53,656 nt of DNA from an uncultured bacterium (GTDB taxonomy: Bacteria; RBG-13-61-14; DRUE01): NCBI GenBank assembly GCA_964592965.1, contig CAZQJX010000001.1, forward strand, positions 1 to 53,656, written 5' to 3'. Position 1 is the stretch's first letter. The number at the start of each line of letters is the position of its first letter. The notes beneath the pieces were generated by a model, which saw only the letters and a list, made by a program, of their open reading frames with translations, did not search any database and was not told where the DNA came from. Shown in pieces: positions 26,556 through 42,376 of this stretch. A program made the translations under genes and the position numbers.

Positions 26556-27412
26556 AAGGCGAGCTTTTTCTAGTTGCCACTCCCATTGGTAATTTAAAAG
26601 ACATATCTGAGCGGGCAATAGAAAGTTTAAATCAGGCAGATATAATTCTTTGTGAAGACACCCGCAGAACTCGGGCGCTTTTAAGCCATTTAGGAATAAG
26701 AGGCAAAAAGCTCATCAGCTTTAATGAGCACAATCAGGACAGGCGCATTCCGCAAATCCTTGCCCAGCTTGAGCAGGGGAAAAAAATCGCACTGGCAAGC
26801 GATGCTGGCACTCCAGCTATATCTGACCCAGGCGGAAAGCTTGTTGAGCTCGCTCACAAAAAAGGGATAAAAATTACACCCATACCCGGAGCAAGCGCCA
26901 TTACCACTGCTCTGAGCGCTAGCGGATTTCCAGCAGAGCGATTCCTTTTTCTAGGATTCCTTTCTGCAAAAGCCGGCGAGAGAAGAAAACTTTTGGAAAA
27001 ATATAAAGATTTTCCTGAAACAATCGTTATCTTTGAAGCACCGCATAGAATAGAAAAAACCATCAAAGACCTGCTAGATGTGCTCGGCAACAGAGAAGCC
27101 TGTCTTTGCCGAGAGCTCACCAAAGCATTTGAAGAAATCCGACGCACAAACCTAAGCGAGCTTCTTGATCACATAAAAACCAATCCTCCAAAAGGAGAAA
27201 TCACTTTGATTCTTGAAGGAGCTGAAAAAGAAATTTCTTTAGATTTCAATGAATTAGAGAAAAAACTTAAAGATATAATTACAGAAAAGCTAGCTCAGGG
27301 TAAAAAACTTAAAGAAATAGTTGAGGAAATTGCCAAATCTTACGAAATTTCAAAAAATAAAATATACAAGCTTGCTCTGGAGATAAAAAACTCCCTAGAG
27401 AAAAATTCTTAA
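26552..27412 (+). CDS. rsmI: 16S rRNA (cytidine1402-2'-O)-methyltransferase
   Basis: LFLVATPIGNLKDIS, CEDTR, SDAGTPAISDPG and FEAPHR motifs. Confidence 0.9.
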   Translation: MKGELFLVATPIGNLKDISERAIESLNQADIILCEDTRRTRALLSHLGIRGKKLISFNEHNQDRRIPQILAQLEQGKKIALASDAGTPAISDPGGKLVELAHKKGIKITPIPGASAITTALSASGFPAERFLFLGFLSAKAGERRKLLEKYKDFPETIVIFEAPHRIEKTIKDLLDVLGNREACLCRELTKAFEEIRRTNLSELLDHIKTNPPKGEITLILEGAEKEISLDFNELEKKLKDIITEKLAQGKKLKEIVEEIAKSYEISKNKIYKLALEIKNSLEKNS

Positions 27413-28779
27413 CCGGTGCTTTTGCTTTTTGCTAAAAGGGATTGGTAAATTTCAAAAAGCTCATTGTAATGATGGTTAATATCTTTAACTTGCGGGATTC
27501 TTTCAGCTAAAAGTGTTATTTCCTCTGGATTTTTCAGCAAGTGCTCAATTTTTTGGGCAAGGTCTTTTGGGTTGTTTGGTTCAAAAAGCGCTCCTCCGCC
27601 TTTTTCCAAAAGTTCTTTCATTCCGCCAAGGTTGCTGGCAAGGACTGGGGTTTTTGCAAGAAAAGCCTCGTGGATGATGAGCGGAGAGTTTTCATACCAC
27701 AGGCTTGGCACAACCAAAAGGTCAAGCTCGGAAAGGATTTTTGGAACTTGGCTGTGCTCTGCCCTTCCCATCCATTTTATTCTCTGGTCAGCTCCTGCAA
27801 TTTTTTTCAGCCAGCGGACATAACCGGGAAAATCCTCAAGTGCACCGTAAATTCTCAGCTCAAGCTCTTGGCTTTTAATCTGCTTGATTGCCTGAAGCAA
27901 AATGTGCACTCCTTTGTGCGCAACCAGAGTTCCGATGTATCCGAGCACAAGCCTGCCTTTTTCCCTTACCGCTTTCTCAACATAACCTTCAAGCTCAAAG
28001 CCGTAGTCTGAATGAATAATCTTTTTCACTGGAATCATTTTGGAGCTGACCATCATTTGTTTAAGAAAATTACTCGGAGAGATAATAAGGTCAAGTGCAT
28101 CCACAACCTTTTTCATCTCCTGCCATCGCTCTTTGAGCAATTTTTCTTTTTCTTCTAATTTTTGCTTGCGTCCGAGTTTATCCCTCAGCCAATCCACCCA
28201 TTTTGGTGGTAGGGTTCTTTTGATTTTATGAGCCAATCCCAAAGCATATTCAATTGACTTTTGAATTGTGGCTGGGAAACCGCCTGGAATCATTGCGCTC
28301 ATAGAATGTGGGCAACTAATACAGGCAGAAGATTGCTCTGGGTCTGGGCAGGGAACATATTGTGGTTTGAGCATTATAATTGCTGGGCAGATAAGCCAGT
28401 AATCAGCAAGGGTGAGTATGCAGGGAATACCTCTTTTTTTTGCTTTATGCACAAATCCCACGCTGAGCCGAAAAAGATGCTGAAAGTGAATTAGCTCTGG
28501 CTTGAGCTCATCTAGCACTTTGTCAAAGATTTCATCAAAATCTTCTCTTAGATAAGTTGAACGAAAATCTCTTGCGCCTGAATGATAAAGCCGAAAAACT
28601 TTAATTCCCTTGTATTCCTCTTCTTTAAGCTCAAATCCAGGCTGGGAGCGGTCTTCGCTTGTAAATATCCATACCTCGTGCCCTTTTTCGCTGAACTTTT
28701 TTGCTAAAGAATGCGTATAAATCTCTGTTCCTGCCTGATGACGAGGCAAATAGTAATGAACCACATAAAGGATTTTCAT
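27409..28779 (-). CDS. GT4-family (GT-B) glycosyltransferase with a four-Cys insertion
   Basis: MKILYVVHYYLP...GTEIY start and a C-terminal E..P......EA motif (ENSPLIIHEAFLAKTPVLAS). Insertion DYWLICP-x12-C-x8-CxxC at about 28312-28389. This is the last gene of the long operon. Its stop overlaps the rsmI stop (TTAA). Confidence 0.85.
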   Translation of the reverse strand: MKILYVVHYYLPRHQAGTEIYTHSLAKKFSEKGHEVWIFTSEDRSQPGFELKEEEYKGIKVFRLYHSGARDFRSTYLREDFDEIFDKVLDELKPELIHFQHLFRLSVGFVHKAKKRGIPCILTLADYWLICPAIIMLKPQYVPCPDPEQSSACISCPHSMSAMIPGGFPATIQKSIEYALGLAHKIKRTLPPKWVDWLRDKLGRKQKLEEKEKLLKERWQEMKKVVDALDLIISPSNFLKQMMVSSKMIPVKKIIHSDYGFELEGYVEKAVREKGRLVLGYIGTLVAHKGVHILLQAIKQIKSQELELRIYGALEDFPGYVRWLKKIAGADQRIKWMGRAEHSQVPKILSELDLLVVPSLWYENSPLIIHEAFLAKTPVLASNLGGMKELLEKGGGALFEPNNPKDLAQKIEHLLKNPEEITLLAERIPQVKDINHHYNELFEIYQSLLAKSKSTG

Positions 28780-29792
28780 TTTTTTCGCTTAAACAGCTTT
28801 TGGTAAATTTTATAAAAAATAGTTGATTTAACCTTTTGATGAAAATCCTCCAGCTCGGAAACATAAGCTCGCAAATGTTTTATCTCCTCATCTTTGTCTT
28901 TCAAAACTTGCTTGAGCTGGTCAATTTCTTCTGCTAGCTTTTTAAGCTCACCGTGCTTAAAAATTTCCAGCCACATTCGCATTTTTTCATAATCAGGCTC
29001 TTGGTCAGAGGAGATTTTTGCGATAAGGTCATCAAGGGCTGAAGGGTCGTTTTGGAGAAGCGAGCGAGATGCTACTATGAGATGCCTGTATGCAGGCTCT
29101 GATAAATCCTTCCAGAAAAAATGCTGATTGTAAAAGCGAGTAAGCTCATCTCGGATTTTATCTCCGGAAGGAATTCCCTCAAAAAAATAATAGCAAAGCA
29201 TCATAACAATCCAATTCTCAAGTTTTCCATTGGGGATAATGATGGTATCAAAGCCGAGTTTAACCAGCTCTGATTCAGTCTCAAACAAGCTTGGAGAAGC
29301 TATTTCTAAATGCTCCTTTAAATACAAATGCTCCCAGCCAAGCCACTCCTTGATGAAATCAAAAACTAATCTCTCTGCCTGACGAGCCAGCTTGTATTGA
29401 AAAGGAGCTGATATAAGAACCAGCTCCGCACTCACCCGAGCAAGCTCATTAATGGCAGTATTTCGCTCCTCTGGCAAAAGATGCTCCAAAAGGTCAACAC
29501 TAACCACCACCTTAAATGAGCGGTCAGCAAAAGGAAGTGAAAGCGCATTTGCCCGAACCCAGCGGTCTTTTTTCTCTGCAAGAAGGTCAACAATAAAAAG
29601 TGTGCTGGGCGCAAAAAACCTCTCGCCTATGCCAGGATGACCGCCTACTTCAAGTATTTCCGTTTCAGCTGTGCATAATCCCAATCGCTCCAAAACTTCA
29701 GCGCAAAGCCGATACCGCTGATACTGGTCAAAAGGAAAAGATAAAAGCTCTGGGCTGAGATATTTCATATTCAAAATCCTGCTTTTTATCAT
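28776..29792 (-). CDS. Class I SAM-dependent methyltransferase with a C-terminal coiled coil
   Basis: ILEVGGHPG motif I and VVVSVDLLEHL. The last 60 aa or so are heptad-like (LKKLAEEIDQLKQVLKDKDEEIKHLRAYVSELEDFHQKV). Confidence 0.7.
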   Translation of the reverse strand: MIKSRILNMKYLSPELLSFPFDQYQRYRLCAEVLERLGLCTAETEILEVGGHPGIGERFFAPSTLFIVDLLAEKKDRWVRANALSLPFADRSFKVVVSVDLLEHLLPEERNTAINELARVSAELVLISAPFQYKLARQAERLVFDFIKEWLGWEHLYLKEHLEIASPSLFETESELVKLGFDTIIIPNGKLENWIVMMLCYYFFEGIPSGDKIRDELTRFYNQHFFWKDLSEPAYRHLIVASRSLLQNDPSALDDLIAKISSDQEPDYEKMRMWLEIFKHGELKKLAEEIDQLKQVLKDKDEEIKHLRAYVSELEDFHQKVKSTIFYKIYQKLFKRKK

Positions 29793-29793
29793 T

Positions 29794-30375
29794 TTATCGC
29801 TGGCGAATTATCTTTGCAGGAATTCCGACTGCAATGGTATTTTCAGGAATATCATCCAGCACCACGCTTCCAGCACCGATCACAGCTCCTGAGCCAATTT
29901 TCACCCCAGGAAGAACAATTGCTCCTGCGCCTATCCAGACATCATCACCTATTTCTATTGGCTCGCTTATCTGCTCCTGAAGCTGATGAGGCACTCCTCG
30001 CTCAATACCATGATTAGCGCCAATAATCGCCACCCCAGGTCCCAAGCTTACCTTGTTGCCAATACGAATAGGTGCAGAGACCGCACGAATGGTAGAAAAA
30101 CTGCTGGCAACAAAATCATCGCCAATCTCTATCCATTCAAACCCCATAAAAACAACGAATGGCTCCACTCGGGGATTTTTCCCCACCTTCATTCCTTTTT
30201 TGATCGCATACTCAAGGGAATGATGATGAAAAAATCCTGCCCAGCGAATGAGCGCATCTTCAAGCTCAATGATTTGGGGAGAGGTTTTGCGCTCCTTGAC
30301 GATTTGATAAATCCGATTTAAATCAGGGTCGTCCATCAGACGCTTGAAAAACCTGAGCTTGTCAAAAATCCCCAT
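29794..30375 (-). CDS. Left-handed beta-helix (hexapeptide) O-acetyltransferase
   Basis: Hexapeptide repeats IGDDVWIGAGAIVLPGVKIGSGAVIGAGSVV, then the typical IP.NTIAVGIPAKII ending. Confidence 0.8.
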   Translation of the reverse strand: MGIFDKLRFFKRLMDDPDLNRIYQIVKERKTSPQIIELEDALIRWAGFFHHHSLEYAIKKGMKVGKNPRVEPFVVFMGFEWIEIGDDFVASSFSTIRAVSAPIRIGNKVSLGPGVAIIGANHGIERGVPHQLQEQISEPIEIGDDVWIGAGAIVLPGVKIGSGAVIGAGSVVLDDIPENTIAVGIPAKIIRQR

Positions 30376-32125
30376 CTTTTTCCCCCTGAGTTAGATAGGG
30401 TCTTGACCAAAAAGCAACGCACCAGTCATTGGAGCGCTCGGTTTTGGTCTCAAGAATAAGCCCAACCTTTTTCTCTGCAAATTGCCCAAGGTCAACCATA
30501 AAATCATTCCATTTTCTCTCATCAGGATTGTGTTTGGGGTCAAGATAATGAGAAAAAACCACTTTTTCTTTTCCAAGCCTTGTTTTGACTTTTACCAGAT
30601 ACCAGCATCCCTCTCCAGGCTTATCCCATACATCTGGGCTGAAACTAGCTCCAAAAATCAGCTTGGTATGAGGCTTAATCTCAACCTTCCAGCTCACCCT
30701 GCTCGGTGGGTGAATTAAAATGCTCATTCTATCTTTGCCCCTAACTCGTGTGAGCATAATTTGCACATAACCCTCTCCGCCTTCTTTGATTTTAGCCTTG
30801 TCAAAATTGGCGCAAAGGTCATAATAGCCCTTTGCTCGCTTTCTTGCTGACCAAATCCAACCCCATTTGCGGAATTCTTGGAAAAGCTGGTTGAATTTTT
30901 CATCAGAAAGGTCAGGTAATTTTACACGGGGCTGATAGAAAAAAATAGAAGTAGCAGGTCTTTCTAAAAGCAATCCTTCCCGTCTGCATTTTTCATAAAG
31001 CTCAGTGCCAGGAAATGGCTGAAATATAGAAAGAGAAAGATGGTCTGGGTTGAGAAGCCGGTTAAGCTCCATTGTTTTCTTTATGGTCTTTTCATTATCT
31101 CCTGGCACACCCACCATATTCATACTCCAAGTTTCTAGTCCAAGCTCATCTGCCCATTTGAAAAGCTGAATGATTTGTTCATTGGTCATTTTGCGGTTCA
31201 TTACCTCTTTTCTTATCCGCTCATCACCGCTTTCAACGCCGATAAGAATAGAATAAAGCCCGCTTTCTGCCATCAGCTTTAAAAGCTCATAATCAACTGT
31301 TCCCACCCGAACAAAAATCCTCCAAGGAGTGGAAAAATGCTTTTTGTATTCCTGACAGAACTCCACCACCCATTTTCTTGAGCTGGTAAAAACTTCATCC
31401 ATAAACATTAAAGTTTTTAGCTGGGGATATTGCTGGTGAAGAAGTTTTATTTCCGCAAGCATATTCTCAATTGACCTTCTCCTGTGCCACTTACTTACTC
31501 CACCTGCCAGCTGACTTAAAACCGAATTACAGCAATATGTGCAAGCAAAAGGACAGCCCCTGCTTGCCATTACTGTTATTTGATTATCGTTTTCTTCCAG
31601 AAGGCGAGCCTCATCATAAATTTTCCTGTCAGGAAAAGGAAGCTCATCCAGATTAACAGGCGAGCGAAGCGGATTTAGCTTTATCTGATTATTATCCTTA
31701 AAGCCGAGATTTTTTATCCTTTGAAAATCCCTTTCTTTTTCCAGCGCCTCTACCAGCTCAAGTAGAGGAAATTCTCCCTCTCCCCTGATTAAAAAATCAA
31801 AAACATCTTCTTTGAGCACTTCTTCTGGAACAATGGTCGGATGAATTCCGCCGATGACAATGGGAAGACCAAGAGCGGATTTTACTGCCCTAGCATATCT
31901 TTTCACAAATTGATACTGAAGAGTTGAACAGGAAAAGCCGAGCAGGTGGGGAGAGAATTTCTTTACCTCATAAATAAATTCTTCATCTGTTATTTCTTTT
32001 TCAACATACAAAAGCCCAACCTGATGACCGCTTTGCTTGAGAGTTGCACTTATCCAGCCAATTCCGTGCTGGTAATGATAAATCTGACCAGAGCCAATAT
32101 CTGTATATACCAAAAGTATGCGCAT
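30362..32125 (-). CDS. Class B (B12-binding domain) radical SAM enzyme with an extra C-terminal module
   Basis: N-terminal B12-binding-like fold (MRILLVYTD...LLGFSC...VIGGIHPT...IRGEGE), rSAM CPFACTYC, and a C-terminal module of about 123 aa (30365-30733) shared with two other proteins in the operon. Confidence 0.85.
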   Translation of the reverse strand: MRILLVYTDIGSGQIYHYQHGIGWISATLKQSGHQVGLLYVEKEITDEEFIYEVKKFSPHLLGFSCSTLQYQFVKRYARAVKSALGLPIVIGGIHPTIVPEEVLKEDVFDFLIRGEGEFPLLELVEALEKERDFQRIKNLGFKDNNQIKLNPLRSPVNLDELPFPDRKIYDEARLLEENDNQITVMASRGCPFACTYCCNSVLSQLAGGVSKWHRRRSIENMLAEIKLLHQQYPQLKTLMFMDEVFTSSRKWVVEFCQEYKKHFSTPWRIFVRVGTVDYELLKLMAESGLYSILIGVESGDERIRKEVMNRKMTNEQIIQLFKWADELGLETWSMNMVGVPGDNEKTIKKTMELNRLLNPDHLSLSIFQPFPGTELYEKCRREGLLLERPATSIFFYQPRVKLPDLSDEKFNQLFQEFRKWGWIWSARKRAKGYYDLCANFDKAKIKEGGEGYVQIMLTRVRGKDRMSILIHPPSRVSWKVEIKPHTKLIFGASFSPDVWDKPGEGCWYLVKVKTRLGKEKVVFSHYLDPKHNPDERKWNDFMVDLGQFAEKKVGLILETKTERSNDWCVAFWSRPYLTQGEKDGDF

Positions 32126-33150
32126 TATTCTCTCCTCATATAAAGCCCTATGCAGTCATCGCAGGCAGGACTAAAGCCTTTTTTTAGCATATCCTGCTGA
32201 AATTTTCTTGCTATGTCTTTTTGCCAGATTTCATCAAGAGATTCATCATTAAGATTGCCTAAAATCAATGTGGTTGGTTTTTTTGTTTTTTTATCTTTTT
32301 TCAAAAACCTTACAGGATATCCTAATGCACAGCAGGGACTAGCTTCTCCATTGGCTTTGATAAAAATCTGGTCAATGGGAAAAACCCCGCATCCCCACTG
32401 CCTTTCTTTATGCACCTTTTCAGGGAAAATAACCTCAAGCTCTCCTTTAAATTCCAAGGCAATATCATTGATAAGTTGAAAGAGCGCATCATCAGAAAAA
32501 TCAATATCATAATAGCCTGAATAGGTAATTTCATCTAGGTCTTTGGGAGAAAAAACACCGCCCATCTGCTGAAATAAAATTCCGTCCATTCCCCATTCTA
32601 GCATCTTCTGGGCAAAGGGCTTTAGGTCAAAAAGATAGGATTTTTGCAAAAGGTAGCTGGCATAAATTTTGGGCTTTTTTAGTCCGAGCTGATTTCTTCT
32701 TTTTAGCAAGCTTTTAATTTCTTTTTCTATTTTATCCCAGAACCTTCCTCTTCGCTTTTCATAAACAGCTTTACAAGAAGCATCTATAGAAAAGCAAATA
32801 ACATCCACCTGATTTTCAATAATGGAATTGATTTTTTCTTGGTCAAGTAAAATGCCATTTGAGGTAAAGCTCAAGGTTTGAGAAAACTGAGAGCGAATGA
32901 GCCTGAGCGCTCTTGCAAATTCAGGATGCATAAGAGGCTCGCCCCAGCCAGTAAGGTCAATAGTTTTTAGCTTAGAGATTTGGGGAAGGATTTTTCTAAG
33001 CAGTTCCATTTGCATATTTTGATTTTTGCCTGCACCTTCCCAAGCATTTCTCAGGCAGAACCTACAGGAAAGATTGCAATAACTGGAAAGCTCAAGATTA
33101 ACTGCCCGAAGCTTGGTTAAAGCTTGCGAGTTTTTTTGAGAAAAACTCAT
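32125..33150 (-). CDS. Radical SAM enzyme with a SPASM/twitch-like C-terminal Cys domain
   Basis: CNLSCRFC at residues 25-32. C-terminal WGC-x18-CC ... CDDC. The start overlaps the upstream stop (ATGA) and the stop overlaps the downstream start (TAATG). Confidence 0.8.
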   Translation of the reverse strand: MSFSQKNSQALTKLRAVNLELSSYCNLSCRFCLRNAWEGAGKNQNMQMELLRKILPQISKLKTIDLTGWGEPLMHPEFARALRLIRSQFSQTLSFTSNGILLDQEKINSIIENQVDVICFSIDASCKAVYEKRRGRFWDKIEKEIKSLLKRRNQLGLKKPKIYASYLLQKSYLFDLKPFAQKMLEWGMDGILFQQMGGVFSPKDLDEITYSGYYDIDFSDDALFQLINDIALEFKGELEVIFPEKVHKERQWGCGVFPIDQIFIKANGEASPCCALGYPVRFLKKDKKTKKPTTLILGNLNDESLDEIWQKDIARKFQQDMLKKGFSPACDDCIGLYMRRE

Positions 33151-34199
33151 TCAAATCCACCTCGCAAAAACTCGCTGATGCTCAAAGAATCTCCCAGAGA
33201 ACAGCTCAAACCGCATTTTGGGCAAAGTTGTTTTTGGATTCTTTTCCTTAGCTCCCTAGTAGTTTTGCTCTTCCAGAATTTTTCTGCAGAGACCTGCAAG
33301 AAATTTACCTTTTGCCAGTTGGAAGAAAGCGGGCAGGGAATCCAGCTTCCATCAGAATCAATGACCACTGTTGAATAAAGGCTTAAGCATCTTCTAGTGC
33401 GTCTTTTTCCGCTTAGAATTGAAATCAGGCTTTTATAATGACTTTTATAACCAGCTGGTAGCTTGTTGATAATTTCTTTCAAAAACTCAATGACTGCCTG
33501 CTTTTCGTCTGGAGAAAGGCTTAAGCTTTGAGCAAGCTCTATGTTGCTGTAATACTGGTCCGTTATCTCCACCAGATTAAAAGTTATGCTGGCGCTTTGG
33601 CTTTGGGCAAATTCAAAAATCTCTTTTAGCTGAAAATAATTTCCCTTTTGAATTACGCAGTTAAATCCCAGCTCCAGCCTGTGGCAGGGGAATTCTTCTT
33701 TTAATTTTTTAAACCTGTCTATTGTTTTAATAAGGTTTTCAAAAGCATCTTCTTTTCCACGAATTTTATTATGAGGCTCGCCAATACCATCAAGAGAGAG
33801 ATGAAGAAAAAATCCCTGTTTAGCTGGATTTAGCTTTTGGAGCATCTCTCGGCATCTTAAAATAATTCGCTCCGAATTATAGCCATTGCTTGCCATACCT
33901 AGTATCTGCATTTTGGGAAGGCTTTGATTAAAAACCTCTGTCAGCTCTGCTAAATCTTTGCGCAGGCTCGGCTCCCCGCCAGAAAGCCAGACCACCTCTA
34001 TTTTTTGAAAAAGTTTATTCTTTAAAAGTTCTCTAAGCTCATCTGAGCTAAGCTCTATCTTTTTTTCTGACTTCCATACTCCGCAATGCTGGCAGGCAAG
34101 GTCGCATCGCCGAGTGGGATTGAAAATAAAAAATCTGGGCAGGGGAATAAAAATTCTTCCTGCTCCATAATAAAAAGCAATTTTTACAAGGTCATTCAT
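33147..34199 (-). CDS. Radical SAM enzyme with a SPASM/twitch-like C-terminal Cys domain
   Basis: CDLACQHC. C-terminal RRC-x17-C ... CPKCGLSC. The start is placed at the ATG at 34199, 2 nt after the upstream stop. The track ORF begins at a TTG at 34253 and would overlap by 62 nt. Confidence 0.75.
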   Translation of the reverse strand: MNDLVKIAFYYGAGRIFIPLPRFFIFNPTRRCDLACQHCGVWKSEKKIELSSDELRELLKNKLFQKIEVVWLSGGEPSLRKDLAELTEVFNQSLPKMQILGMASNGYNSERIILRCREMLQKLNPAKQGFFLHLSLDGIGEPHNKIRGKEDAFENLIKTIDRFKKLKEEFPCHRLELGFNCVIQKGNYFQLKEIFEFAQSQSASITFNLVEITDQYYSNIELAQSLSLSPDEKQAVIEFLKEIINKLPAGYKSHYKSLISILSGKRRTRRCLSLYSTVVIDSDGSWIPCPLSSNWQKVNFLQVSAEKFWKSKTTRELRKRIQKQLCPKCGLSCSLGDSLSISEFLRGGFE

Positions 34200-35301
34200 T
34201 TTCTTCAAGGAGCTGGTGGAATTTTTCGTTCTCAAATATGTATCCGCATTCAAGGCAATCGCATTGCTGGGGCGGACCGAGCTGGGGAATTTTAAGCATC
34301 CTATCCCTTATTTTCTGCGCCTCTTCTCCTTTCCATATTTCATAAAAGCTTTTTTCAGTGAGCTTTCCCAAGACCTGCTCGCAGTTGCAACAAGGACGGA
34401 CAGAGCCGTCTGGATATATCATTGCAAACACATATCCTGAATAGCAAGGCAGTTTTTGATAAATATCTCCAGCACGAAGTTTGCCCAGATGCTCATCTTT
34501 GCCAGTAAAGCCAAGATATATGCCTGATTTTTCCGCCAAAGGCTTCAGCTCCTCAATTCTCGCTGAAAATTCCTGATACTCAGCTTCACTAAGAGCATAT
34601 TCTCGCACTGGCTCGCCTGCAAAAGGAAAATCCATAAGAGAAATAAAAGTAAGGGCATCTGCACCTGAGTTTCGGGTAAGCTCAAAAAGCTCTTTTACCT
34701 CAGAATAATTAAATCGGTTAAGAACAGCGGTTAAAGAAATAAAGGGTTTTTTGTTTTGCCGAAATTTAGAAACCTGTTCTATGCCTTCCCACAGCTCATA
34801 AAACTTTTCCTCTCCTATGCCCATCTGCCGGGAATAACTTTTAGAAGTGCCTGCATTTACGCTGATGGAAATTCGGTCAAGACCAATCATACAGATTGCT
34901 CGGGCAAATTGCTTAAGAAGTATGCCATTGGTAACAAGGGCAAGCTCAACATCGGGAAAGTCTCTCCGCAGAAGAAAAAGAAGCGGAATGATGTGCGAGT
35001 AAACAAGAGGCTCTCCGCCTGTTATATGCACTCTTTTAAGCCCGCCCAGCCGATACAGGTCATCAATTAGATGGTCAAGAATTCCGGGATTTAAATCCTT
35101 TGCCTGCTCCAGCCAGCGTGGTGCGAACTTTTGCTTGGCGCTCTTACTCACTGCAAACATCGGACAGAACACACAGCGGGCATTACAGCGGGTGGTAGGA
35201 AGAATCTGTAGGTCCAAAGGACCTTTAAAGACTCTGTGCTGGCTGAGCGCGGTTTTAAGATAGGCTATGCTTTCCTTACTAAACAATCTATCTCTCCCCA
35301 C
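34192..35301 (-). CDS. Radical SAM enzyme with a SPASM-like C-terminal Cys domain
   Basis: CNARCVFC. C-terminal LPC-x17-CCNC ... CDCLEC. The GTG start overlaps the upstream gene by 14 nt. Confidence 0.8.
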   Translation of the reverse strand: MGRDRLFSKESIAYLKTALSQHRVFKGPLDLQILPTTRCNARCVFCPMFAVSKSAKQKFAPRWLEQAKDLNPGILDHLIDDLYRLGGLKRVHITGGEPLVYSHIIPLLFLLRRDFPDVELALVTNGILLKQFARAICMIGLDRISISVNAGTSKSYSRQMGIGEEKFYELWEGIEQVSKFRQNKKPFISLTAVLNRFNYSEVKELFELTRNSGADALTFISLMDFPFAGEPVREYALSEAEYQEFSARIEELKPLAEKSGIYLGFTGKDEHLGKLRAGDIYQKLPCYSGYVFAMIYPDGSVRPCCNCEQVLGKLTEKSFYEIWKGEEAQKIRDRMLKIPQLGPPQQCDCLECGYIFENEKFHQLLEENE

Positions 35302-37078
35302 CTTCTTTTGCCACCAGCAGGGGACTGGAAAATCCAGCAGTGTTGTAAATGTTTTTTTCTGGGTCTTTGGGCTGAGTCTCTAGCTGAAGAAAAATCAATC
35401 CCTGCCAGCTGGAGAGGTCAAGTTTAAAATCAAATACTCCCCTGTCTTGTTTTTTTCCCTGAGCATCAAGGTATTTGGAAAATATCTCTATCAGCTCATT
35501 TGGTTTTTTGCCCAGCCATACTTTAAATATCACTCCTTTGTTCTGCGCCTTTTCATAAACTCCTGGGTGGATAAGTATTCCAAAATTAAGTTCAGCAGGC
35601 TCAGTTAAATTAATCTGATATAAAATTCTTGTTGGTGGATGCATAATCAGCACCCGGTAGACATTTTCATAAATCATCAGGTATTCTTCTCCCCAGTAAT
35701 CAGGCACAGGGGAGAAGATTTCTGCTTGGTCAAGCTCATCAATCAGGTCATAAAGGATTTTTTTATCTTGATATTTTCTTCGCAACCCCTTTTGATAACG
35801 GAAAAATTCGCCCAAGCGAACTAACCTTTGATGCCAGTTGTGAATTTCCTTTGGCGAGAGACTGGGAAATTTCAAGGCGGTCTCTGGAACAAAATAGCCG
35901 TCTTTGATTTGGTCTTTCAAATATCCTTTTTCCAGACAAACCTGATAAAGAGCAGTGCCAGGATAAGGATTAAAAACACTTACCTGCATATGGTCAGGAG
36001 CAAGCCTTCGGTTGAGATTATATGTTGCTAGAGCATCTTCGCTTGTCTCTTCAGGAAGACCAACCATATTAAACGACCATGTCTTAATTCCTGCCTGCTC
36101 CGCTTCTTCAAATGCCTTTATGATTTGCTTTTGTGAGATTCGGCGATTCATTATCTCCCTGCGCACTCGCTCACTTCCGCTCTCAACGCCAATCCTTACC
36201 ATCTCACAGCCAATCTCTTTTAGCTTCTGAAAAATCTCTGCATCAACAGTTCCGCAGTGAACATTTATTCTAAAAGGATATGAAAATCTCTTGGGATACT
36301 TTTCATAAAACTCTTCCAGCCAGGCTCGGTTGAGGGTGAAAATATCATCATTAAAATCCAAGCTTTTAATCTGATAGTTTTTTGAGCAGTTTTCTATTTC
36401 CGCAAGCAGATTATCAACGCTACGAAGCCTCACATACTTTCCCTTTCTTTTATAAAGCTCTTTTTTTGCCTGATTAGCACAATAAGTGCAATCAAATGGA
36501 CAGCCCCTGCCAACAAGAAGGCTCAAGCGCCTGTCATCTCCATCTAAAATCTCCTGATAGTTAAAAACCTCTCGGTCAGGAAAAGGAAGGCTGTCTAGGT
36601 CTGGAATTAATGGTCGGAGCGGATTTTTAATCACCCTGCCCTTCCATTTAATCCATAAATTTTCCACTTCAAGATAAGAGCGGTCTTGCTCAAGAGCTTG
36701 GGCTAGCTCAACAATAGCCTCTTCTCCTTCTCCTCGGCAAACAATATCTATTTCTGGCACAGATATAGTCTCTTCCGGCGCCAAAGTGGCATGCACTCCA
36801 CCGCAGATGATAAGGGTTTTGGGAAAATCCCTTTTTATCCACCGTCCCAATTTCACCAGATACCTGAATTGGTGGCTGGTGGCGCTAAAAGCGATTAAAT
36901 CTGGAGAAAAGCCTTTTATTTTTTCTCTCAGCTCATCTTCATTGGGAAAATGAGAAAGATATAAAAGCCCGCACCTATGCCCCTGTTTTTTCAAAACCGA
37001 AGATAAATATCCTATTCCGTGCTGATAGTGTTTTGGTAAAAAACTGCCTAAATCAGGATATATGAAAAGAATGTTCAT
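35288..37078 (-). CDS. Class B (B12-binding domain) radical SAM enzyme with an extra C-terminal module
   Basis: MNILFIYPD...LIAFSA...ICGGVHAT...CRGEGE, rSAM CPFDCTYC, and a C-terminal module (35291-35662) homologous to those of the 30362-32125 and 37301-38746 proteins. Confidence 0.85.
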   Translation of the reverse strand: MNILFIYPDLGSFLPKHYQHGIGYLSSVLKKQGHRCGLLYLSHFPNEDELREKIKGFSPDLIAFSATSHQFRYLVKLGRWIKRDFPKTLIICGGVHATLAPEETISVPEIDIVCRGEGEEAIVELAQALEQDRSYLEVENLWIKWKGRVIKNPLRPLIPDLDSLPFPDREVFNYQEILDGDDRRLSLLVGRGCPFDCTYCANQAKKELYKRKGKYVRLRSVDNLLAEIENCSKNYQIKSLDFNDDIFTLNRAWLEEFYEKYPKRFSYPFRINVHCGTVDAEIFQKLKEIGCEMVRIGVESGSERVRREIMNRRISQKQIIKAFEEAEQAGIKTWSFNMVGLPEETSEDALATYNLNRRLAPDHMQVSVFNPYPGTALYQVCLEKGYLKDQIKDGYFVPETALKFPSLSPKEIHNWHQRLVRLGEFFRYQKGLRRKYQDKKILYDLIDELDQAEIFSPVPDYWGEEYLMIYENVYRVLIMHPPTRILYQINLTEPAELNFGILIHPGVYEKAQNKGVIFKVWLGKKPNELIEIFSKYLDAQGKKQDRGVFDFKLDLSSWQGLIFLQLETQPKDPEKNIYNTAGFSSPLLVAKEGGER

Positions 37079-37079
37079 C

Positions 37080-37277
37080 TTAGATATGATGCTTCATAAA
37101 GTTCGCTATTGAGCGGTCCCAAGTTGCCTCACCCTCTTTGGTAAAAAAGCAGGCAGGTAGTTCCTTCATTCGCAGATGATAGCGAATGCACTCACAGCAA
37201 ATGCCTTTTCGCTCGCATGGCTCATAAGTGCAGTTGCAGAACTTGAGATTCTTCTCTTTGTTTTTGCACTCTATCAT
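37080..37277 (-). CDS. Small (65 aa) 8-cysteine protein, probably a metal or Fe-S binding accessory protein
   Basis: MIECKNKEKNLKFCNCTYEPCERKGICCECIRYHLRMKELPACFF... A strong SD (AAGGAGGTG) lies 5 nt upstream, and there is a 1-nt gap to the next gene. The CNCTYEPC..KG.CCEC..YH...LPACFF pattern resembles a conserved small Cys-rich DUF family, which I remember as DUF6485 (unverified). Confidence 0.7.
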   Translation of the reverse strand: MIECKNKEKNLKFCNCTYEPCERKGICCECIRYHLRMKELPACFFTKEGEATWDRSIANFMKHHI

Positions 37278-37300
37278 CTTTACACCTCCTTAAAGATTTT

Positions 37301-38746
37301 TTATGGATGACGAAGAGCTTTTTTTTCTATTTTCTTCTCAATAGCGCTGAGGAATCTTCTTTTAAAATCTATGGTTTTAGTCTGAGCTTTTGAGATAATT
37401 CTCGGTTCCGCCCATCCCACCCATCCATATTTTATCTCATTACTTTTGGTGATTAAATCCAGCCAGATTTTTTTGCCTGCCCAGTTTTTTAGCTCCAGCT
37501 CAAAATCCTGCCAGCTGGTAAAAACATCTTTTTTGGGCACAATGCGCTTTTTAAAGATTAACTCACCTTGCACTGCTACCATAAAATCAACTGGCTGGCT
37601 TCGCTTTAGCCATACTTTGGGATTAAATCCCAAGCTGAATTTAAAAACAGGCTGGCTGGGAAGGGTTAATTGAAAACTTATCATTGCTGGTGGATTGGCA
37701 AAAATCACCCTTTGCCAGCGCTCCCCTACAACAAAAGCGGTTTTAAATACTCGCTTTTTAGCATCTTTTGGATAAATATGAGCTTTTTTGAAAAGCTCAA
37801 GCAAAGATATATAAGAATCAGGTAGAAATGTTTTGCTGGCTAGGTATCTTCCAAGCATCTCCGCTCCCTTATAAAATGGCTCGCATATTCCTGCCCATAA
37901 TTTTTTTTGAAAAGGCTCTTCAAAATTCTCAAGTTCTTTTACAAAGGAATAGCTATCTTTAAAAAAAGCCCGACAAACTTCCTTCAAATCAGGATAATAA
38001 ATTGCTCCGAAATATTTGCCAGCTATTTTTTGGTCAATCCAGCCACGCTTGAACAGGTATAAAACATTGGGCTGGTGGCTATGATAAACCACAGAATCAG
38101 GACAGAAGGCGATTTTGTATCCAGCAAAAAGACAGGCTTTGCTCCAAAGCAAATCCTCTGCCCACTCCACACTTGGAATGGGAATTTTATCAAGAACATC
38201 TTTTCGCCGAAGTGAGCTCACATCATCAAAATCGCAAAACAAAATCCGCTCAATTGGCTCCAGCTTGTGGTATTGCATTAAATCTTTAAGCTCAGAGATA
38301 GCCGGTTGGTTTGAGTAAGCCTTTCTTTTCTTCAGCCGAACCTTTTCTGAAATCGTGGCATTTTCTCGGGGAAGTTGCCTGCTGTATGTTCCTGCGATTT
38401 TCTCATCTTTAAGAGCTGGCTTTACAAGATTAATCAGCCAGTATTCATTGGCAGGAAAAGCATCTGCTACCAGATAAACTAAAAATTCTCCTTGAGCCAA
38501 TTTAGAAGCATAAGCTCGGGTTGCGCCATGAGAAAAACTTTCTCTTGATACCTCAATTAAGCGAACAGAATGATTTTTAGCAAACCAGCGGACAATTTCA
38601 ACGGTCTGGTCAGAAGAGCCAGAATCCACCACCAAAACCTCATAGGCAAAATCTGTTTTCTGATTTAAAACCCTTTCTAGACAGGTCTTGATATTCTTTT
38701 CTTCATTAAGGGTAGGAATGATTATGCTGACCTTCGGCTCCATCAT
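37301..38746 (-). CDS. GT2-family (GT-A) glycosyltransferase with an extra C-terminal module
   Basis: VSIIIPTLNEE...VLVVDSGSSDQT...LVADAFP in the GT-A N-terminal half. The C-terminal module (about 37394-37717) is homologous to the tails of both class B rSAM proteins. Confidence 0.85.
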   Translation of the reverse strand: MMEPKVSIIIPTLNEEKNIKTCLERVLNQKTDFAYEVLVVDSGSSDQTVEIVRWFAKNHSVRLIEVSRESFSHGATRAYASKLAQGEFLVYLVADAFPANEYWLINLVKPALKDEKIAGTYSRQLPRENATISEKVRLKKRKAYSNQPAISELKDLMQYHKLEPIERILFCDFDDVSSLRRKDVLDKIPIPSVEWAEDLLWSKACLFAGYKIAFCPDSVVYHSHQPNVLYLFKRGWIDQKIAGKYFGAIYYPDLKEVCRAFFKDSYSFVKELENFEEPFQKKLWAGICEPFYKGAEMLGRYLASKTFLPDSYISLLELFKKAHIYPKDAKKRVFKTAFVVGERWQRVIFANPPAMISFQLTLPSQPVFKFSLGFNPKVWLKRSQPVDFMVAVQGELIFKKRIVPKKDVFTSWQDFELELKNWAGKKIWLDLITKSNEIKYGWVGWAEPRIISKAQTKTIDFKRRFLSAIEKKIEKKALRHP

Positions 38747-39801
38747 TCTAACAGCTCAGCATTAAACCAAGGACTGCGAGATTCAACAAGGCAAAGCTGA
38801 CAATAATTAGGATACTTCCCTTGTGAAATCCTTTTTCTTGCCTCTTTATATTTATCCCCGTTCCATATCTGCTCAAACCCTGCTTCTTTTAATGTGCCCA
38901 TAAATTCTGCGGTTCCACAGCAAAGAAAAATTCTTCCATTGGTTCTTACTCCAAAATTTATCCAGGGTTGAGGGCATCGCTTGATGCGCTTTTTTCCTTC
39001 CAAATATGTGCTGGTAAAGATTAATCTTTTGCCAAGAGCATCCTTTTTGAGATTTTCAAGCCTGCTCATCAACTCGGCATCAGCGGGAACATAATTCTTT
39101 TGAAAAAAATCCTGATACTTTGCATCAAAGCTGAAAATCGGACTGAGAGGTTCAACCACCAGATGATTTATACCCAAAGAGCTGGCGAATTCTACCACCT
39201 TATCCAGCTCTTTTAGATTCTCTTTGAAAAGCGTAAATTGCATATTAAGATAGGGCTTTGATTTTCCCTGTTTTTTCTTTTCCTCATCAAGCAGTTTAAT
39301 AGCCTCTACCACCTGCTCCAGCTCAGCCCCTCTGCGAATTCTCCGATAGGTATCTGGATTTATTGCATCAATGGAAAATGAAAGGCAGTCTAGCTCAAGC
39401 TCAACCAGTTCCTTTGCGCAGGCAGAATCAATTAAAGTTCCATTGGTATTTAAAATTACCTCCAGCTTAAGCTGTTTTACCTCTTTTGCCAGCTCAAAAA
39501 ACTTTGGATGCAAAAAAGGCTCACCACCACCGCTTAAAAAGCATCTTTGAGCATATTCCAAAACAGGTTTGAGCCTTTGGATAAAATCAAGGTCTAAAAA
39601 TTTCTCCTCATACTGATACTCGCTAACTCCCATTGCCACAGGACACATTGGACAGGAAAGATTGCACACGCTGGTTGCTTCAAGATAAACCACCAGCGGA
39701 AAATGTTTAACTTTTACTTTGCCTTTTTTCCAGGCTATCTGCGCCTGTTTTTTGTTCCAAGCTTTTTTCTCTAAAAGAGAGCTTTTAGCAAAAAAAATCA
39801 T
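38743..39801 (-). CDS. Radical SAM enzyme with a SPASM/twitch-like C-terminal Cys domain
   Basis: CNLSCPMC at residues 46-53. C-terminal KRC-x17-CC ... CQLC. Lies 3 nt after the wzt stop. Confidence 0.8.
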   Translation of the reverse strand: MIFFAKSSLLEKKAWNKKQAQIAWKKGKVKVKHFPLVVYLEATSVCNLSCPMCPVAMGVSEYQYEEKFLDLDFIQRLKPVLEYAQRCFLSGGGEPFLHPKFFELAKEVKQLKLEVILNTNGTLIDSACAKELVELELDCLSFSIDAINPDTYRRIRRGAELEQVVEAIKLLDEEKKKQGKSKPYLNMQFTLFKENLKELDKVVEFASSLGINHLVVEPLSPIFSFDAKYQDFFQKNYVPADAELMSRLENLKKDALGKRLIFTSTYLEGKKRIKRCPQPWINFGVRTNGRIFLCCGTAEFMGTLKEAGFEQIWNGDKYKEARKRISQGKYPNYCQLCLVESRSPWFNAELLE

Positions 39802-39804
39802 CTT

Positions 39805-41052
39805 TTAACTTATCTTCCAGCTTGCTTTGGGAATAAATACGCCTCGGTCAATAACCTTTGGGCTCTGCACCTCAAAACGAACCACATCAAAAACCTCATC
39901 AACGCACGCGCAGGCACCGCTTTTTCCTCTAAAAATATTCACTGATAGCTGATACCTTGCCGGTAAAAGCTCGTTTTGAAATTTATAGCTCACTTTGCCC
40001 TTATGACCAGCTGATATTTTCTCTGGCAAATCTATTTCAACTTTTTGACCAAATTCAGAAGCAAGCTGAGCACATTCCTGATTGGTGCTCAAAATCAAAA
40101 CCCCATCACTGCGGAAAATGTTAATCCCAAAGAGCAAATCACTAATATCCTTTTTAACCTCATATTCAAACTCTATCTCCACCTCCTCTCCGGTTTTGAA
40201 GACATAAACTTCTTCTCCCAAAGAATTCTTCATCTTTACAGATACCACCCTTGCCTCTCCTGTGCCTCTTCTTTTCCATTCACCTTCTTTTCTCTCCTCT
40301 CTCAACGCCTCTTGATAAATATCTTCCAGATAAGCAGATAAAACATCGTCTATCTTTCCCTGCGCGTAAATTCTACCTTCTTTTAAATAAATTCCACGCT
40401 CGCACAAACCCCGAATCATTGTTAAATCATGCGAGGCAATTATTAAAGTTTTTCCTTGCTCCTTCATCTCTAGCATTCTCCGCAGGCATTTGGAGCGAAA
40501 ATGCTCATCACCAACTGCCAGCGCCTCATCAATCAAAAAAATATCTGGCTCAAGCGCCTGTGCAAGGGAAAACCCCAAGCGAAGATACATTCCATCAGAA
40601 TAGGTGCGAACAGGAAGGTCAATAAAATCCCCCAGCTCAGAGAATTCTATCATCTGCTGAATTTTTTCATCTAGTTCTTTTGATGAAAAGCCTGCAATCA
40701 TTCCATTCAGCCTAAGATTTTCTCTCCCAGTAAATTCAGGATGAAAACCGCTTCCCAGCTCCAAAAGCGTAGCAAGCCTACCTAAAATCCCTATTTTACC
40801 TTTGGTAGGTGGACTAATTCCTGCTAGCACTTTAAGAAGAGTGGTTTTACCAGCGCCGTTTCTTCCCACAATTCCAAAGCACTCTCCTTTTTTGACTTCA
40901 AAGCTTACATCCCTAAGCGCCACCACCTGACAATGATATTTTCTTTTACCAAGTAAAATCCGCTCATAAAGCCAATGTCTGGGCTTGGTATATACCTTAA
41001 AGACCTTCCAGAGCTCGCTCGCTTTAACAGCTACCTCAGACACGGTCTGCAA
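39805..41052 (-). CDS. wzt: Glycan-export ABC transporter ATPase (Wzt/TagH type) with a C-terminal beta-sandwich extension
   Basis: GRNGAGKTTLLK Walker A, YSDGMYLRLGFS signature, IDEALAVGD Walker B. A C-terminal domain of about 155 aa (39805-40278) begins WKRRGTGEARVVSV, like the Wzt carbohydrate-binding domains. Confidence 0.85.
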   Translation of the reverse strand: MQTVSEVAVKASELWKVFKVYTKPRHWLYERILLGKRKYHCQVVALRDVSFEVKKGECFGIVGRNGAGKTTLLKVLAGISPPTKGKIGILGRLATLLELGSGFHPEFTGRENLRLNGMIAGFSSKELDEKIQQMIEFSELGDFIDLPVRTYSDGMYLRLGFSLAQALEPDIFLIDEALAVGDEHFRSKCLRRMLEMKEQGKTLIIASHDLTMIRGLCERGIYLKEGRIYAQGKIDDVLSAYLEDIYQEALREERKEGEWKRRGTGEARVVSVKMKNSLGEEVYVFKTGEEVEIEFEYEVKKDISDLLFGINIFRSDGVLILSTNQECAQLASEFGQKVEIDLPEKISAGHKGKVSYKFQNELLPARYQLSVNIFRGKSGACACVDEVFDVVRFEVQSPKVIDRGVFIPKASWKIS

Positions 41053-41884
41053 ACCCCTTTTTCAAGCGGTTGAAAATCCAAAAGCCTAAAACAAGAGAAA
41101 CAGCCATCATCGCTGTAAGAAAAACCACTGATTTTAATTCTGGCAAACTTTTTTCCAGCAAAAGCCTTCTGTATCCTTCTACAAGATGTGCCATTGGATT
41201 GAGCCAGATAAATATCTGGAATTTAGCAGGAACCATATTAGCAGGATAAAATATTGGCGTGGCATACATCCAAACTAAAAGTAGCACTGGCACCAGTTGA
41301 ATAATATCCCTTACCCAAACGCTGAGCCCTGAAATAAGATACCCCAGTCCCAAGCCAAAGCCCAGTTGAACCAAAATCCAAACAAAAACTAAAACCAAGC
41401 CCAAAAAACTCAGTTTTCCTTTAAAACCCGCCCATAAAATTAAAACCAAAAATCCAATCACCTGCCCGCAAAGACCGCTTAAAACAGGAACCGCAGGAAG
41501 AATACCAACTGGAAATTTAACTCTGCTGATGAGGTTGCGATGCTCAATAAGATAACTACCTGCTCTAATTAATCCTTCTTGAAACCCTAGCCAAGGGATA
41601 AGTCCGCAAAGAATATAAAGAGCACTTATTCCAACACCTTTTTCAGCACCGAATTTTGCCTGAAAAACTATGGCAAAGATAAAGGTGAAAATAAGAAGCA
41701 ATAAAAGCGGATGAATAACTGTCCAGAAAATTCCAATCAGGCTTCCAACATACTTACTGCGCAAATCCCGCTCAACCATTCGCCAAAGCAGGCGCCAGTT
41801 TGTCTTCCAGCTAGCCACACCCTTTAATAACCTATCATTTATTTTTGCAAAGATAAAATCTTTTAGCTTAAATTTTTGAGACAC
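41036..41884 (-). CDS. wzm: ABC-2 type glycan-export permease
   Basis: Six-TM ABC-2 profile. The 3' end overlaps the wzt start by 17 nt. Confidence 0.85.
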   Translation of the reverse strand: MSQKFKLKDFIFAKINDRLLKGVASWKTNWRLLWRMVERDLRSKYVGSLIGIFWTVIHPLLLLLIFTFIFAIVFQAKFGAEKGVGISALYILCGLIPWLGFQEGLIRAGSYLIEHRNLISRVKFPVGILPAVPVLSGLCGQVIGFLVLILWAGFKGKLSFLGLVLVFVWILVQLGFGLGLGYLISGLSVWVRDIIQLVPVLLLVWMYATPIFYPANMVPAKFQIFIWLNPMAHLVEGYRRLLLEKSLPELKSVVFLTAMMAVSLVLGFWIFNRLKKGFADRV

Positions 41885-41915
41885 TTATGAGCAAATTAGT
41901 TCCGAGCAGGCTTTT

Positions 41916-42373
41916 TCAAAACAGCAAAAAGCGAAACTCCAAAGCCAAGTTTGGCTCGTTGGCTTCTTCCCTGCCAAATAAAAGCCTCAAGCAAAATCTT
42001 ATTGAAGAGCTTTGAAGGAGGGGGTCTTCCAATCGCCTGCTTTTGCTAATTTTCAACTTGGTGCGAAGTTTGCGACAAACAAGAATAGGAAAGAAAGCCA
42101 GCGAGTTCACATAATACTTAAAAAATCAAATATCCTGAACCATAAAATACTTTCTCCAAAGATTTCCAAAACCAACCGTTGGAGCAAAAAGATTCTAAGC
42201 TAGCTTAAATCCCATACACCGATATAGGGTGGTAGGTGATAATGCTTCCACACCCAAACACCGTAGCAATAAATAGCTTGGTCAGCTCTTAATCCAAACC
42301 AAATGGTAAGCTATAAATTAAATGCACTAATTATTAAGCTCGGAATAAAAAATTTTGCCTGAAAAATTTTCAC
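41916..42373 (-). pseudogene. Decayed, truncated tandem paralogue of the upstream GT-C (ArnT/PMT-like) glycosyltransferase gene
   Basis: The minus-strand frame starting at the GTG at 42371-42373 reads VKIFQAKFFIPSLIISAFNL*LTIWFGLRADQAIYCYGVWVWKHYHLPPYIGVWDLS*LRIFLLQRLVLEIFGESILWFRIFDFLSIM*. This aligns with residues about 5-95 of the intact neighbour (...FWLALIAGGIFLLPSLWFGFTMDQAVGAYVAWVWKKYHLVPYVGAWDLSFPGMYIVHRLALEIFGESILGFRLFDFLAQL...). In-frame stops lie at 42311-42313, 42200-42202 and 42107-42109. A frameshift follows (NSLAFFPILVC against SSLAGFFSSIFY), and everything beyond about 150 codons is lost. Confidence 0.8.
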
Positions 42374-42376
42374 CCC

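Follow-up and report, generated by a model that had tools for sequence, protein, structure and literature searches.

A module of about 125 amino acids (aa) is shared by the C-terminal tails of three enzymes encoded in a glycan cluster of an uncultured bacterium (GTDB lineage Bacteria; RBG-13-61-14; DRUE01). The cluster lies on contig CAZQJX010000001.1 of assembly GCA_964592965.1, whose positions 1 to 53,656 form the whole stretch that was analysed, hereafter the window. The carriers are two class-B radical S-adenosylmethionine (SAM) enzymes, proteins A and B, and one family 2 glycosyltransferase (GT2), protein C, and their three tails are homologous. The module is ancient and mobile, occurs widely as an accessory of enzymes that assemble glycans on either side of the membrane and is not peculiar to this locus. 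It is a carbohydrate-binding module (CBM)-like accessory domain and, by analogy with glycosyltransferases that decorate teichoic acids, its most likely role is non-catalytic substrate capture, a reading to which a probability of about one half is given.

One module on three enzymes

A preliminary description of the window had noted the likeness between the three tails, and the coordinates and translations that it gave are exact (30733 to 30365 corresponds to aa 465-587 of the 587-aa protein A, 35662 to 35291 to aa 473-596 of the 596-aa protein B, and 37717 to 37394 to aa 344-451 of the 481-aa protein C). The class-B assignment of A and B relies on Pfam matches to B12-binding (E 8e-19 and 5e-19) and Radical_SAM (E 2e-23 and 1e-24), and the cluster motif CxxxCxxC is visible in their translations as CPFACTYC and CPFDCTYC. 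In the same way, protein C is a GT2 by its match to Pfam Glycos_transf_2 (PF00535, E 1.3e-22). In the module regions, that is about the last 125 aa of A and B and about aa 335-455 of C, no Pfam family was matched even at E<=1, and none of the NCBIfam models covers the three tails.

Proteins A and B are paralogous over their whole length (36% identity over 599 aa, E 7e-132) and their common tail therefore needs no special explanation. The tail of C was matched by BLASTP both to A (29% identity over 94 aa, E 7e-8) and to B (28% identity over 130 aa, E 9e-6). The profile-profile comparison that the preliminary description had called for was made with 20 class-B tails against 33 GT2 tails, and hhalign returned a probability of 99.9% (E 5.2e-33, 119 aligned columns). 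In parallel, a family hidden Markov model (HMM) was built from 228 module copies of other proteins, to the exclusion of the window sequences and of orthologues of A. It matched all three tails with E values of 1e-25 or lower (Table 1), and the next six-frame open reading frame (ORF) of the window scored E 0.04. The three matches are full-length, running from HMM position 4 or 5 to position 132 or 134 (about 120 of 136 positions). BLASTP, hhalign and the independent HMM are thus all significant, and the claim that two class-B enzymes and a GT2 carry the same C-terminal module is borne out. The six-frame search with the family HMM found no further copy, so that the window holds exactly three.

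Other proteins of the cluster were considered as additional carriers. The family 4 glycosyltransferase (GT4) at 27409-28779 on the reverse strand contains about 140 residues (about aa 130-270) between its N- and C-terminal GT4 Pfam matches, and this insert matched neither the family HMM nor Pfam. The insert, the GT-C protein and Wzt were all rejected because the family HMM does not match them.

The similarity would be trivial if the module were the normal class-B C-terminal domain, or if the GT2 resembled it by chance or composition. The paralogy of A and B does go some way in this direction, as gene duplication explains two of the three copies. Against it stands the distribution of the module among class-B enzymes. 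Species-representative genomes were scanned with a full-length class-B alignment and the 80 closest loci were retained, 74 of which had enough downstream DNA for a tail. The module was present on the radical SAM gene in four of these 74 loci and absent from the other 70. Three paralogues with the module were seen both in a Planctomycetota metagenome-assembled genome (MAG), in tandem, and in a Bdellovibrionota MAG, four in an unclassified MAG, and one weak copy in a Gemmatimonadota MAG. The usual class-B C-terminal domains (TokK/TsrM-type, DUF4080) sit at the same position as the module, after the radical SAM barrel, but they differ from it in that neither DUF4080 nor any other Pfam family was matched by the tails. 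A recent review of solved B12-dependent radical SAM structures describes other kinds of accessory domain, and a text search of it gave no mention of a beta-sandwich (PMC12931638).

The GT2 side is equally at odds with a chance resemblance. Orthologues of C form about 37 database clusters of full-length proteins (461-487 aa, 36-56% identity, 33 of them aligned), whereas the next GT2 relatives are "rhamnosyltransferase"-type proteins of about 320 aa that end before the module. Since the profile similarity is significant and the module is rare in class-B enzymes and genuine in the GT2, neither a lack of relationship between the tails nor an ordinary class-B C-terminal domain with a spurious GT2 likeness can account for the data. 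The independent HMM (E 1e-25 for the GT2 tail), the hhalign result and the count of four in 74 refute the trivial explanation, which is left with a very small probability.

Predicted fold, family and fusion partners

The alternating hydrophobic pattern of the tails had led to the guess of a beta-sandwich, and AlphaFold2 (AF2) models agree with it. The tail of A was predicted as nine beta-strands with a mean predicted local distance difference test (pLDDT) of 87.8 and a predicted template modelling score (pTM) of 0.82. In the model of full-length C (pLDDT 92.2, pTM 0.88), the module region likewise appears as an all-beta domain. A Foldseek search with the A-tail model, a comparison with CBM folds also advised in the preliminary description, gave moderate matches in the PDB (E about 7e-4 to 6e-3, template modelling (TM) score 0.45-0.66). 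They comprise MAM domains (enteropeptidase, meprin, InhA2), CBM22, CBM51, CBM16, CBM4 and the carbohydrate-binding domain of BcsB, all of the galactose-binding-domain-like or jelly-roll class. According to these models, the module is a jelly-roll-like beta-sandwich with NPCBM/CBM51 and MAM-type domains as its nearest known relatives.

Sequence comparison points the same way at a distance. Pfam NPCBM was matched by 5 of 43 diverse module copies (best E 2.5e-6), as well as by the third module copy of one protein, P0152 (E 3e-8), and Pfam InhA-like_MAM (PF20773) was matched weakly by 11 of the 43 (best E 0.0023). The window tails themselves matched neither NPCBM (PF08305, gathering score 23.9 bits) at E<=1 nor InhA-like_MAM. 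When the module profile was compared with PDB sequences, the top match was a marginal one to InhA2 (E 0.016) over the segment W.D...DLS.F.GK.V.L.F.

The MAM and InhA-like MAM domains provide the best Foldseek matches of the module (8ziy, 8h3u, 4yu5, 4gwn and 7uai, TM 0.55-0.58), with sequence matches that all fall below the family thresholds. Unlike the module, MAM domains are found on extracellular proteases and receptors, where they mediate protein-protein contacts, and not in glycan biosynthesis. The NPCBM/NEW2 domain (PF08305), which corresponds to CBM51 (PMC9513282), resembles the module, as predicted, in being a galactose-binding-domain-like beta-sandwich of about 130-140 aa that is fused to carbohydrate-active enzymes. 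The CBM51 structures 7jrl, 7js4 and 2ygm were matched at E 2e-3 to 6e-3 (TM 0.55-0.60), and MAM, CBM22 and CBM16 structures matched equally well. Nevertheless, the known NPCBM/CBM51 domains bind glycans of the host as parts of secreted glycoside hydrolases and peptidases (PMC9513282), whereas the partners of the module are biosynthetic enzymes, some of them cytoplasmic and radical SAM enzymes among them. Moreover, the Pfam NPCBM model is not reached by the three window tails or by most members of the module family.

Another beta-sandwich is encoded in the same operon, namely the C-terminal domain of Wzt (39805-41052, Wzt_C, PF14524, E 4e-20). Such domains recognise the finished polymer in the cytoplasm. 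No relationship to the module was detected, with hhalign probabilities of 0.4% and 4% and a family HMM that misses Wzt. Judged on its sequences and predicted fold, the module is a distinct family on the NPCBM/MAM side of the galactose-binding-domain-like superfamily, for which neither Pfam nor NCBIfam has a model of its own.

The search in other genomes that the preliminary description had proposed uncovered a large family, mainly on glycan and envelope enzymes. Word-indexed homologue searches returned nothing for the GT2 tail alone and, for a profile of the three tails, only three fragments orthologous to A. It is the exhaustive profile search of 1.84 billion representative proteins (representatives of clusters at 50% identity) that alone revealed the family, with 2,806 representatives at E<=1e-3 and 1,133 at E<=1e-10. 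For the fusion partners, the non-module parts of the best 150 proteins were clustered and sampled with Pfam (20 proteins scanned). Among these 150 are 49 polytopic membrane proteins with tetratricopeptide (TPR) repeats and two tandem module copies, 15 YfhO-type GT-C proteins with two copies and six class-B radical SAM proteins with one copy. Smaller groups include PMT_2 proteins with one C-terminal copy, Wzy_C proteins with TPR repeats and one copy, GT2s with one copy, sulfatase-type enzymes with two N-terminal copies, phosphodiesterase-type enzymes with one, and GT4s in which a copy is inserted between the Rossmann halves or three copies follow at the C-terminus. Tandem pairs are the commonest form of the module. 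Four of the 20 scanned carriers had no Pfam match and one (P0120) had only a weak beta-helix match; apart from the latter, all identifiable partners in the sample are glycan or envelope enzymes. The fusion to radical SAM enzymes is unusual. One protein, P0087 (1504 aa), combines a radical SAM domain, a putative glycosyltransferase (DUF6716), two module copies and a FliW domain, and is either an odd fusion or a gene-calling artefact.

Carriers were found on both sides of the membrane. Topology was taken from a Kyte-Doolittle scan, a crude method of which only the clear cases were used. Lipoprotein signal peptides mark exported carriers in two loci (L024 and L031; L numbers denote loci of other genomes) and in protein P0067, and in YfhO proteins the module copies lie between transmembrane helix 11 and the last one. 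On the contrary, the radical SAM, GT2 and GT4 carriers must be cytoplasmic because of their cofactors and donors.

The loci around module copies are glycan loci. For instance, in a locus unrelated to that of the window (L090, 6888-11913), a GT4 with the module between its two Rossmann halves accompanies a sulfatase-type enzyme with two N-terminal modules. In L024, two adjacent divergent sulfatase-type genes carry one module each, one of them with the lipoprotein signal, beside a class-B radical SAM gene that has no module. Tandem arrays of class-B enzymes were also seen. Four paralogues, each with a module, stand in a row in L004 (10001-17374, 589-635 aa) and in L007 (9992-17436), where they adjoin rnpA, yidC and jag, and three in L006 (Planctomycetota) and L008 (Bdellovibrionota).

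A candidate role in substrate capture

The full model of C was best matched by TarS, TarP, RmlT and PcManGT, and also by SpsA, in Foldseek. TarP and RmlT are, by the titles of their structure entries, decorators of wall teichoic acid polymers. TarS of Staphylococcus aureus and RmlT share the design of C, in which a GT-A (GT2) domain leads through a helical linker to an accessory beta-sandwich at the C-terminus, and TarS-type GT2s decorate a lipid-linked anionic polymer in the cytoplasm. To our knowledge, tails of this type have not been reported on radical SAM enzymes. TarS decorates the wall teichoic acid polymer; its tandem CBM-like C-terminal domains, proposed to bind poly-ribitol phosphate, form the trimer interface and raise polymer affinity and processivity while being dispensable for catalysis (PMC5156392). 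The likeness is one of analogy and not of homology, as the TarS tail consists of two CBM48/CBM68-like modules (PMC5156392) with no visible sequence relationship to the module.

On this precedent, the module would have no part in catalysis and would serve to capture the substrate. Its loops at one end of the sandwich would grip either the glycopolymer as it grows on its membrane anchor or the anionic, lipid-linked terminus of that polymer, and the module would thereby keep each soluble cytoplasmic enzyme on the polymer before export by Wzm/Wzt. Such tethering would raise local concentration and processivity, and the module might add to oligomerisation, as the CBM-like domains of TarS do.

The loops themselves give an ambivalent picture. 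The motifs of the family are HP (beta2-3), P.VW..GDG (beta4-5), DPK..DR.W.D (beta6-7) and DWAGW (beta8-9). Since the four loops join even- to odd-numbered strands, they should, on the AF2 model, lie at one end of the sandwich. Loops at a sandwich end are the usual ligand site of loop-binding CBMs. The tail of A largely keeps these motifs and those of B and C have lost many of them; with respect to the family consensus, the B copy lacks W47, GDG, P78, W87, DW and W123, and in the GT2 lineage these loops hold a different set of invariant residues (R382, P376, W442 and P448). This sequence pattern suggests a retained functional site with diverged specificity and not one shared epitope. In parallel, mean column identity within the GT2 family is 0.42 for the module, compared with 0.56 for the GT-A core and 0.35 for the helical middle region; the module is thus conserved like the non-core parts of the enzyme, which indicates that it is under constraint.

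The three tails are 24-27% identical to one another, and each is closer to copies in other architectures (31-37%) than to its two neighbours, so that recent domain shuffling within the locus was rejected. The data fit fusions that are old, that evolved separately and that possibly have different specificities. As these fusions date far back and every module has since evolved alongside the enzyme that carries it, a common epitope for all three is not required. The preliminary description had proposed a targeting or substrate-binding module that brings three chemistries to one acceptor or docks them on one scaffold. Its first part is favoured by the CBM-like beta-sandwich seen with AF2, Foldseek and the NPCBM matches. 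The common acceptor, or scaffold, is a plausible hypothesis on which the low identity and the differing loop motifs are neutral to negative.

Charge was also compared. The isoelectric points (pI) of the window modules are 9.6 (A), 8.2 (B) and 10.1 (C), and the median is about 9.0 on GT2 and class-B radical SAM enzymes, against 5.05 for the other 228 copies, which are mostly on GT-C membrane proteins. A basic charge would be appropriate for contact with an anionic polymer, with a pyrophosphate-lipid end or with a membrane surface. The last of these corresponds to a different function, in which the module would be a peripheral membrane-binding domain, discoidin- or C2-like in function, that places soluble enzymes at the inner leaflet with their undecaprenyl-linked substrates. 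The strongly basic copies of the cytoplasmic enzymes, the membrane-associated substrates on which all carriers act, the basic amphipathic helix at the end of the GT2 and the presence of lipid-binding discoidin domains in the fold superfamily would all agree with it. It is a live but rather unlikely alternative: an anchor would be superfluous for most family members, which are integral membrane proteins or exported lipoproteins, no discoidin or F5/8-C domain appeared among the sequence or structure matches, and the basic charge suits an anionic polymer equally well.

The module could also be an oligomerisation or scaffold-docking domain, for example one that holds the GT2 and the two radical SAM enzymes in a multi-enzyme complex on one intermediate, with ligand binding secondary or absent. 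The trimer interface of TarS is a precedent, the best Foldseek matches are the MAM domains with their protein-protein contacts, tandem pairs are the commonest module form and the GT2 model has a high pTM. Several carriers per locus are found as well, with three in the window, L002 and L086, two in L088, L003 and L090, and three or four tandem module-bearing radical SAM enzymes in L004 and L006-L008. However, the number of copies per locus varies from one to four without a fixed stoichiometry, the three tails, at 24-27% identity, are not co-evolving as a set, and single extracytoplasmic enzymes, among them the YfhO protein of L089, carry the module too. This alternative is likewise live but rather unlikely.

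Several observations weigh against substrate capture itself. The structural matches are weak (E about 1e-3) and their fold class also serves protein-protein adhesion, as in MAM domains, and lipid binding, as in discoidin domains. A single conserved sugar site is unlikely since B and C lack many of the conserved polar loop residues. The pTM of 0.88 for the model of C suggests that the module packs against the enzyme, and such packing would agree with a function in structure or oligomerisation no less than with one in binding. Finally, the module-bearing radical SAM enzymes of L004 and L007 have no glycosyltransferase within 10 kb and the core cassette of L088 lacks Wzm/Wzt, so that a glycopolymer substrate is uncertain for some carriers.

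The cluster and its relatives

The three carriers are part of a co-directional glycan cluster on the reverse strand (Table 1).

Table 1. Coordinates of the module copies, their carriers and the surrounding cluster in the window
Feature	Position	Strand	Description
Protein A, class-B radical SAM	30362-32125	-	587 aa; B12-binding, radical SAM, helical linker, module
Protein B, class-B radical SAM, paralogue of A	35288-37078	-	596 aa; Pfam B12-binding and Radical_SAM, module
Protein C, GT2	37301-38746	-	481 aa; GT-A core, helical region, module, C-terminal helix ending RHP
Module copy 1 (protein A)	30383-30757	-	aa 457-581, profile envelope; family HMM E 2e-36
Module copy 2 (protein B)	35306-35686	-	aa 465-591, profile envelope; family HMM E 4e-30
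Module copy 3 (protein C)	37382-37744	-	aa 335-455, profile envelope; family HMM E 1e-25
Co-directional glycan cluster	27409-43975	-	Pfam; GT-C (PMT_2), Wzm, Wzt with Wzt_C, four SPASM/radical SAM, acyltransferase, methyltransferase, GT4
DUF6485 protein, Cys-rich	37080-37277	-	65 aa; Pfam DUF6485 E 1e-11; between GT2 and protein B

In the order of transcription, the genes encode a GT-C protein, Wzm, Wzt with its Wzt_C domain, a SPASM radical SAM enzyme, the GT2 with its module, the DUF6485 protein, a class-B enzyme with module, three SPASM/radical SAM enzymes, the second class-B enzyme with module, a hexapeptide acyltransferase, a methyltransferase and a GT4. The same gene order, with the module on the same three proteins, was found in L086/L087 and a closely similar one in L002, so that the three-enzyme arrangement recurs in syntenic clusters elsewhere. 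Partial versions exist in L003 and L088, where the module is carried by the GT2 and one class-B enzyme. The proteins of L002 and L003 share 33-51% identity with their window counterparts, and C is 47% identical to the GT2 of L086 and 36% to that of L088. The module fusions are retained in syntenic clusters at 35-50% identity.

The cluster contains six radical SAM genes, two of class B and four of the radical SAM/SPASM type (38743-39801, 34192-35301, 33147-34253 and 32125-33150), and this six-gene arrangement is kept in L002 and L086. None of the six proteins reaches an NCBIfam equivalog cut-off. For A and B, which were compared with HpnJ, BchE, ApyD, PhpK and other equivalogs, the best matches (HpnJ, ApyD and BchE among them) gave 170 and 155 bits against curated cut-offs of 578 and 750, and ended near aa 430 (in A they cover about aa 1-430). 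As A and B fall far below every such cut-off, their substrate is not inferable from these models. The six genes suggest extensive radical tailoring of an exported polysaccharide, which would be unusual. We know of no report of radical chemistry on a surface polysaccharide, and the literature searched yielded none, nor did it yield any combination of radical SAM enzymes with a CBM in polysaccharide clusters.

A broader proposal, which is doubtful at present, would see in the module the signature of an unrecognised and widespread envelope-polymer recognition system. As a new CBM-like family, the module would recognise an intermediate, whether lipid-linked or polymeric, at both membrane faces and would tether radical SAM chemistry, that is C-methylation or other radical tailoring by B12-dependent and SPASM enzymes, to the growing polysaccharide. 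The conserved operon, found mostly in metagenomes of uncultivated bacteria, places six radical SAM enzymes inside a Wzm/Wzt export cluster, and the proposal would imply a class of radical-SAM-tailored surface glycans in these organisms. The module would then be a searchable marker of enzymes that act on the polymer and not on nucleotide sugars. If it does bind the polymer or its carrier, it would single out those enzymes of a glycan locus that act on the assembled chain and not on soluble precursors, and so provide a practical rule by which GT-C, GT2, GT4, sulfatase-like and radical SAM proteins, still uncharacterised in their thousands, could be annotated. The family comprises at least 2,806 clusters at 50% identity and deserves a database entry of its own.

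Beyond its module, protein C has about 26 more residues (37301-37375, aa 457-481) that are predicted to form an amphipathic, basic helix. All of the 33 aligned GT2 orthologues end in [FL]RH and a single further residue (C itself has RHP), and neither the R nor the H varies among them. This ending looks like a conserved C-terminal docking or active-site tail.

The DUF6485 gene is a conserved member of the core cassette that does not carry the module. The gene is found in the same place in L003, L086/L087 and L088, and in L086 and L088 the sequence is strongly conserved as well. No mention of DUF6485 was found in the literature; the protein may carry a metal or an Fe-S cluster, or work as a partner of the radical SAM enzymes.

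Outside the cluster, an ORF of 188 aa on the forward strand (46674-47240) matches only the C-terminal part of a sulfatase (Sulfatase positions 230-301, together with SGSH_C) and is possibly a truncated or frameshifted sulfatase gene. It lies directly upstream of another GT2 (47278-48312).

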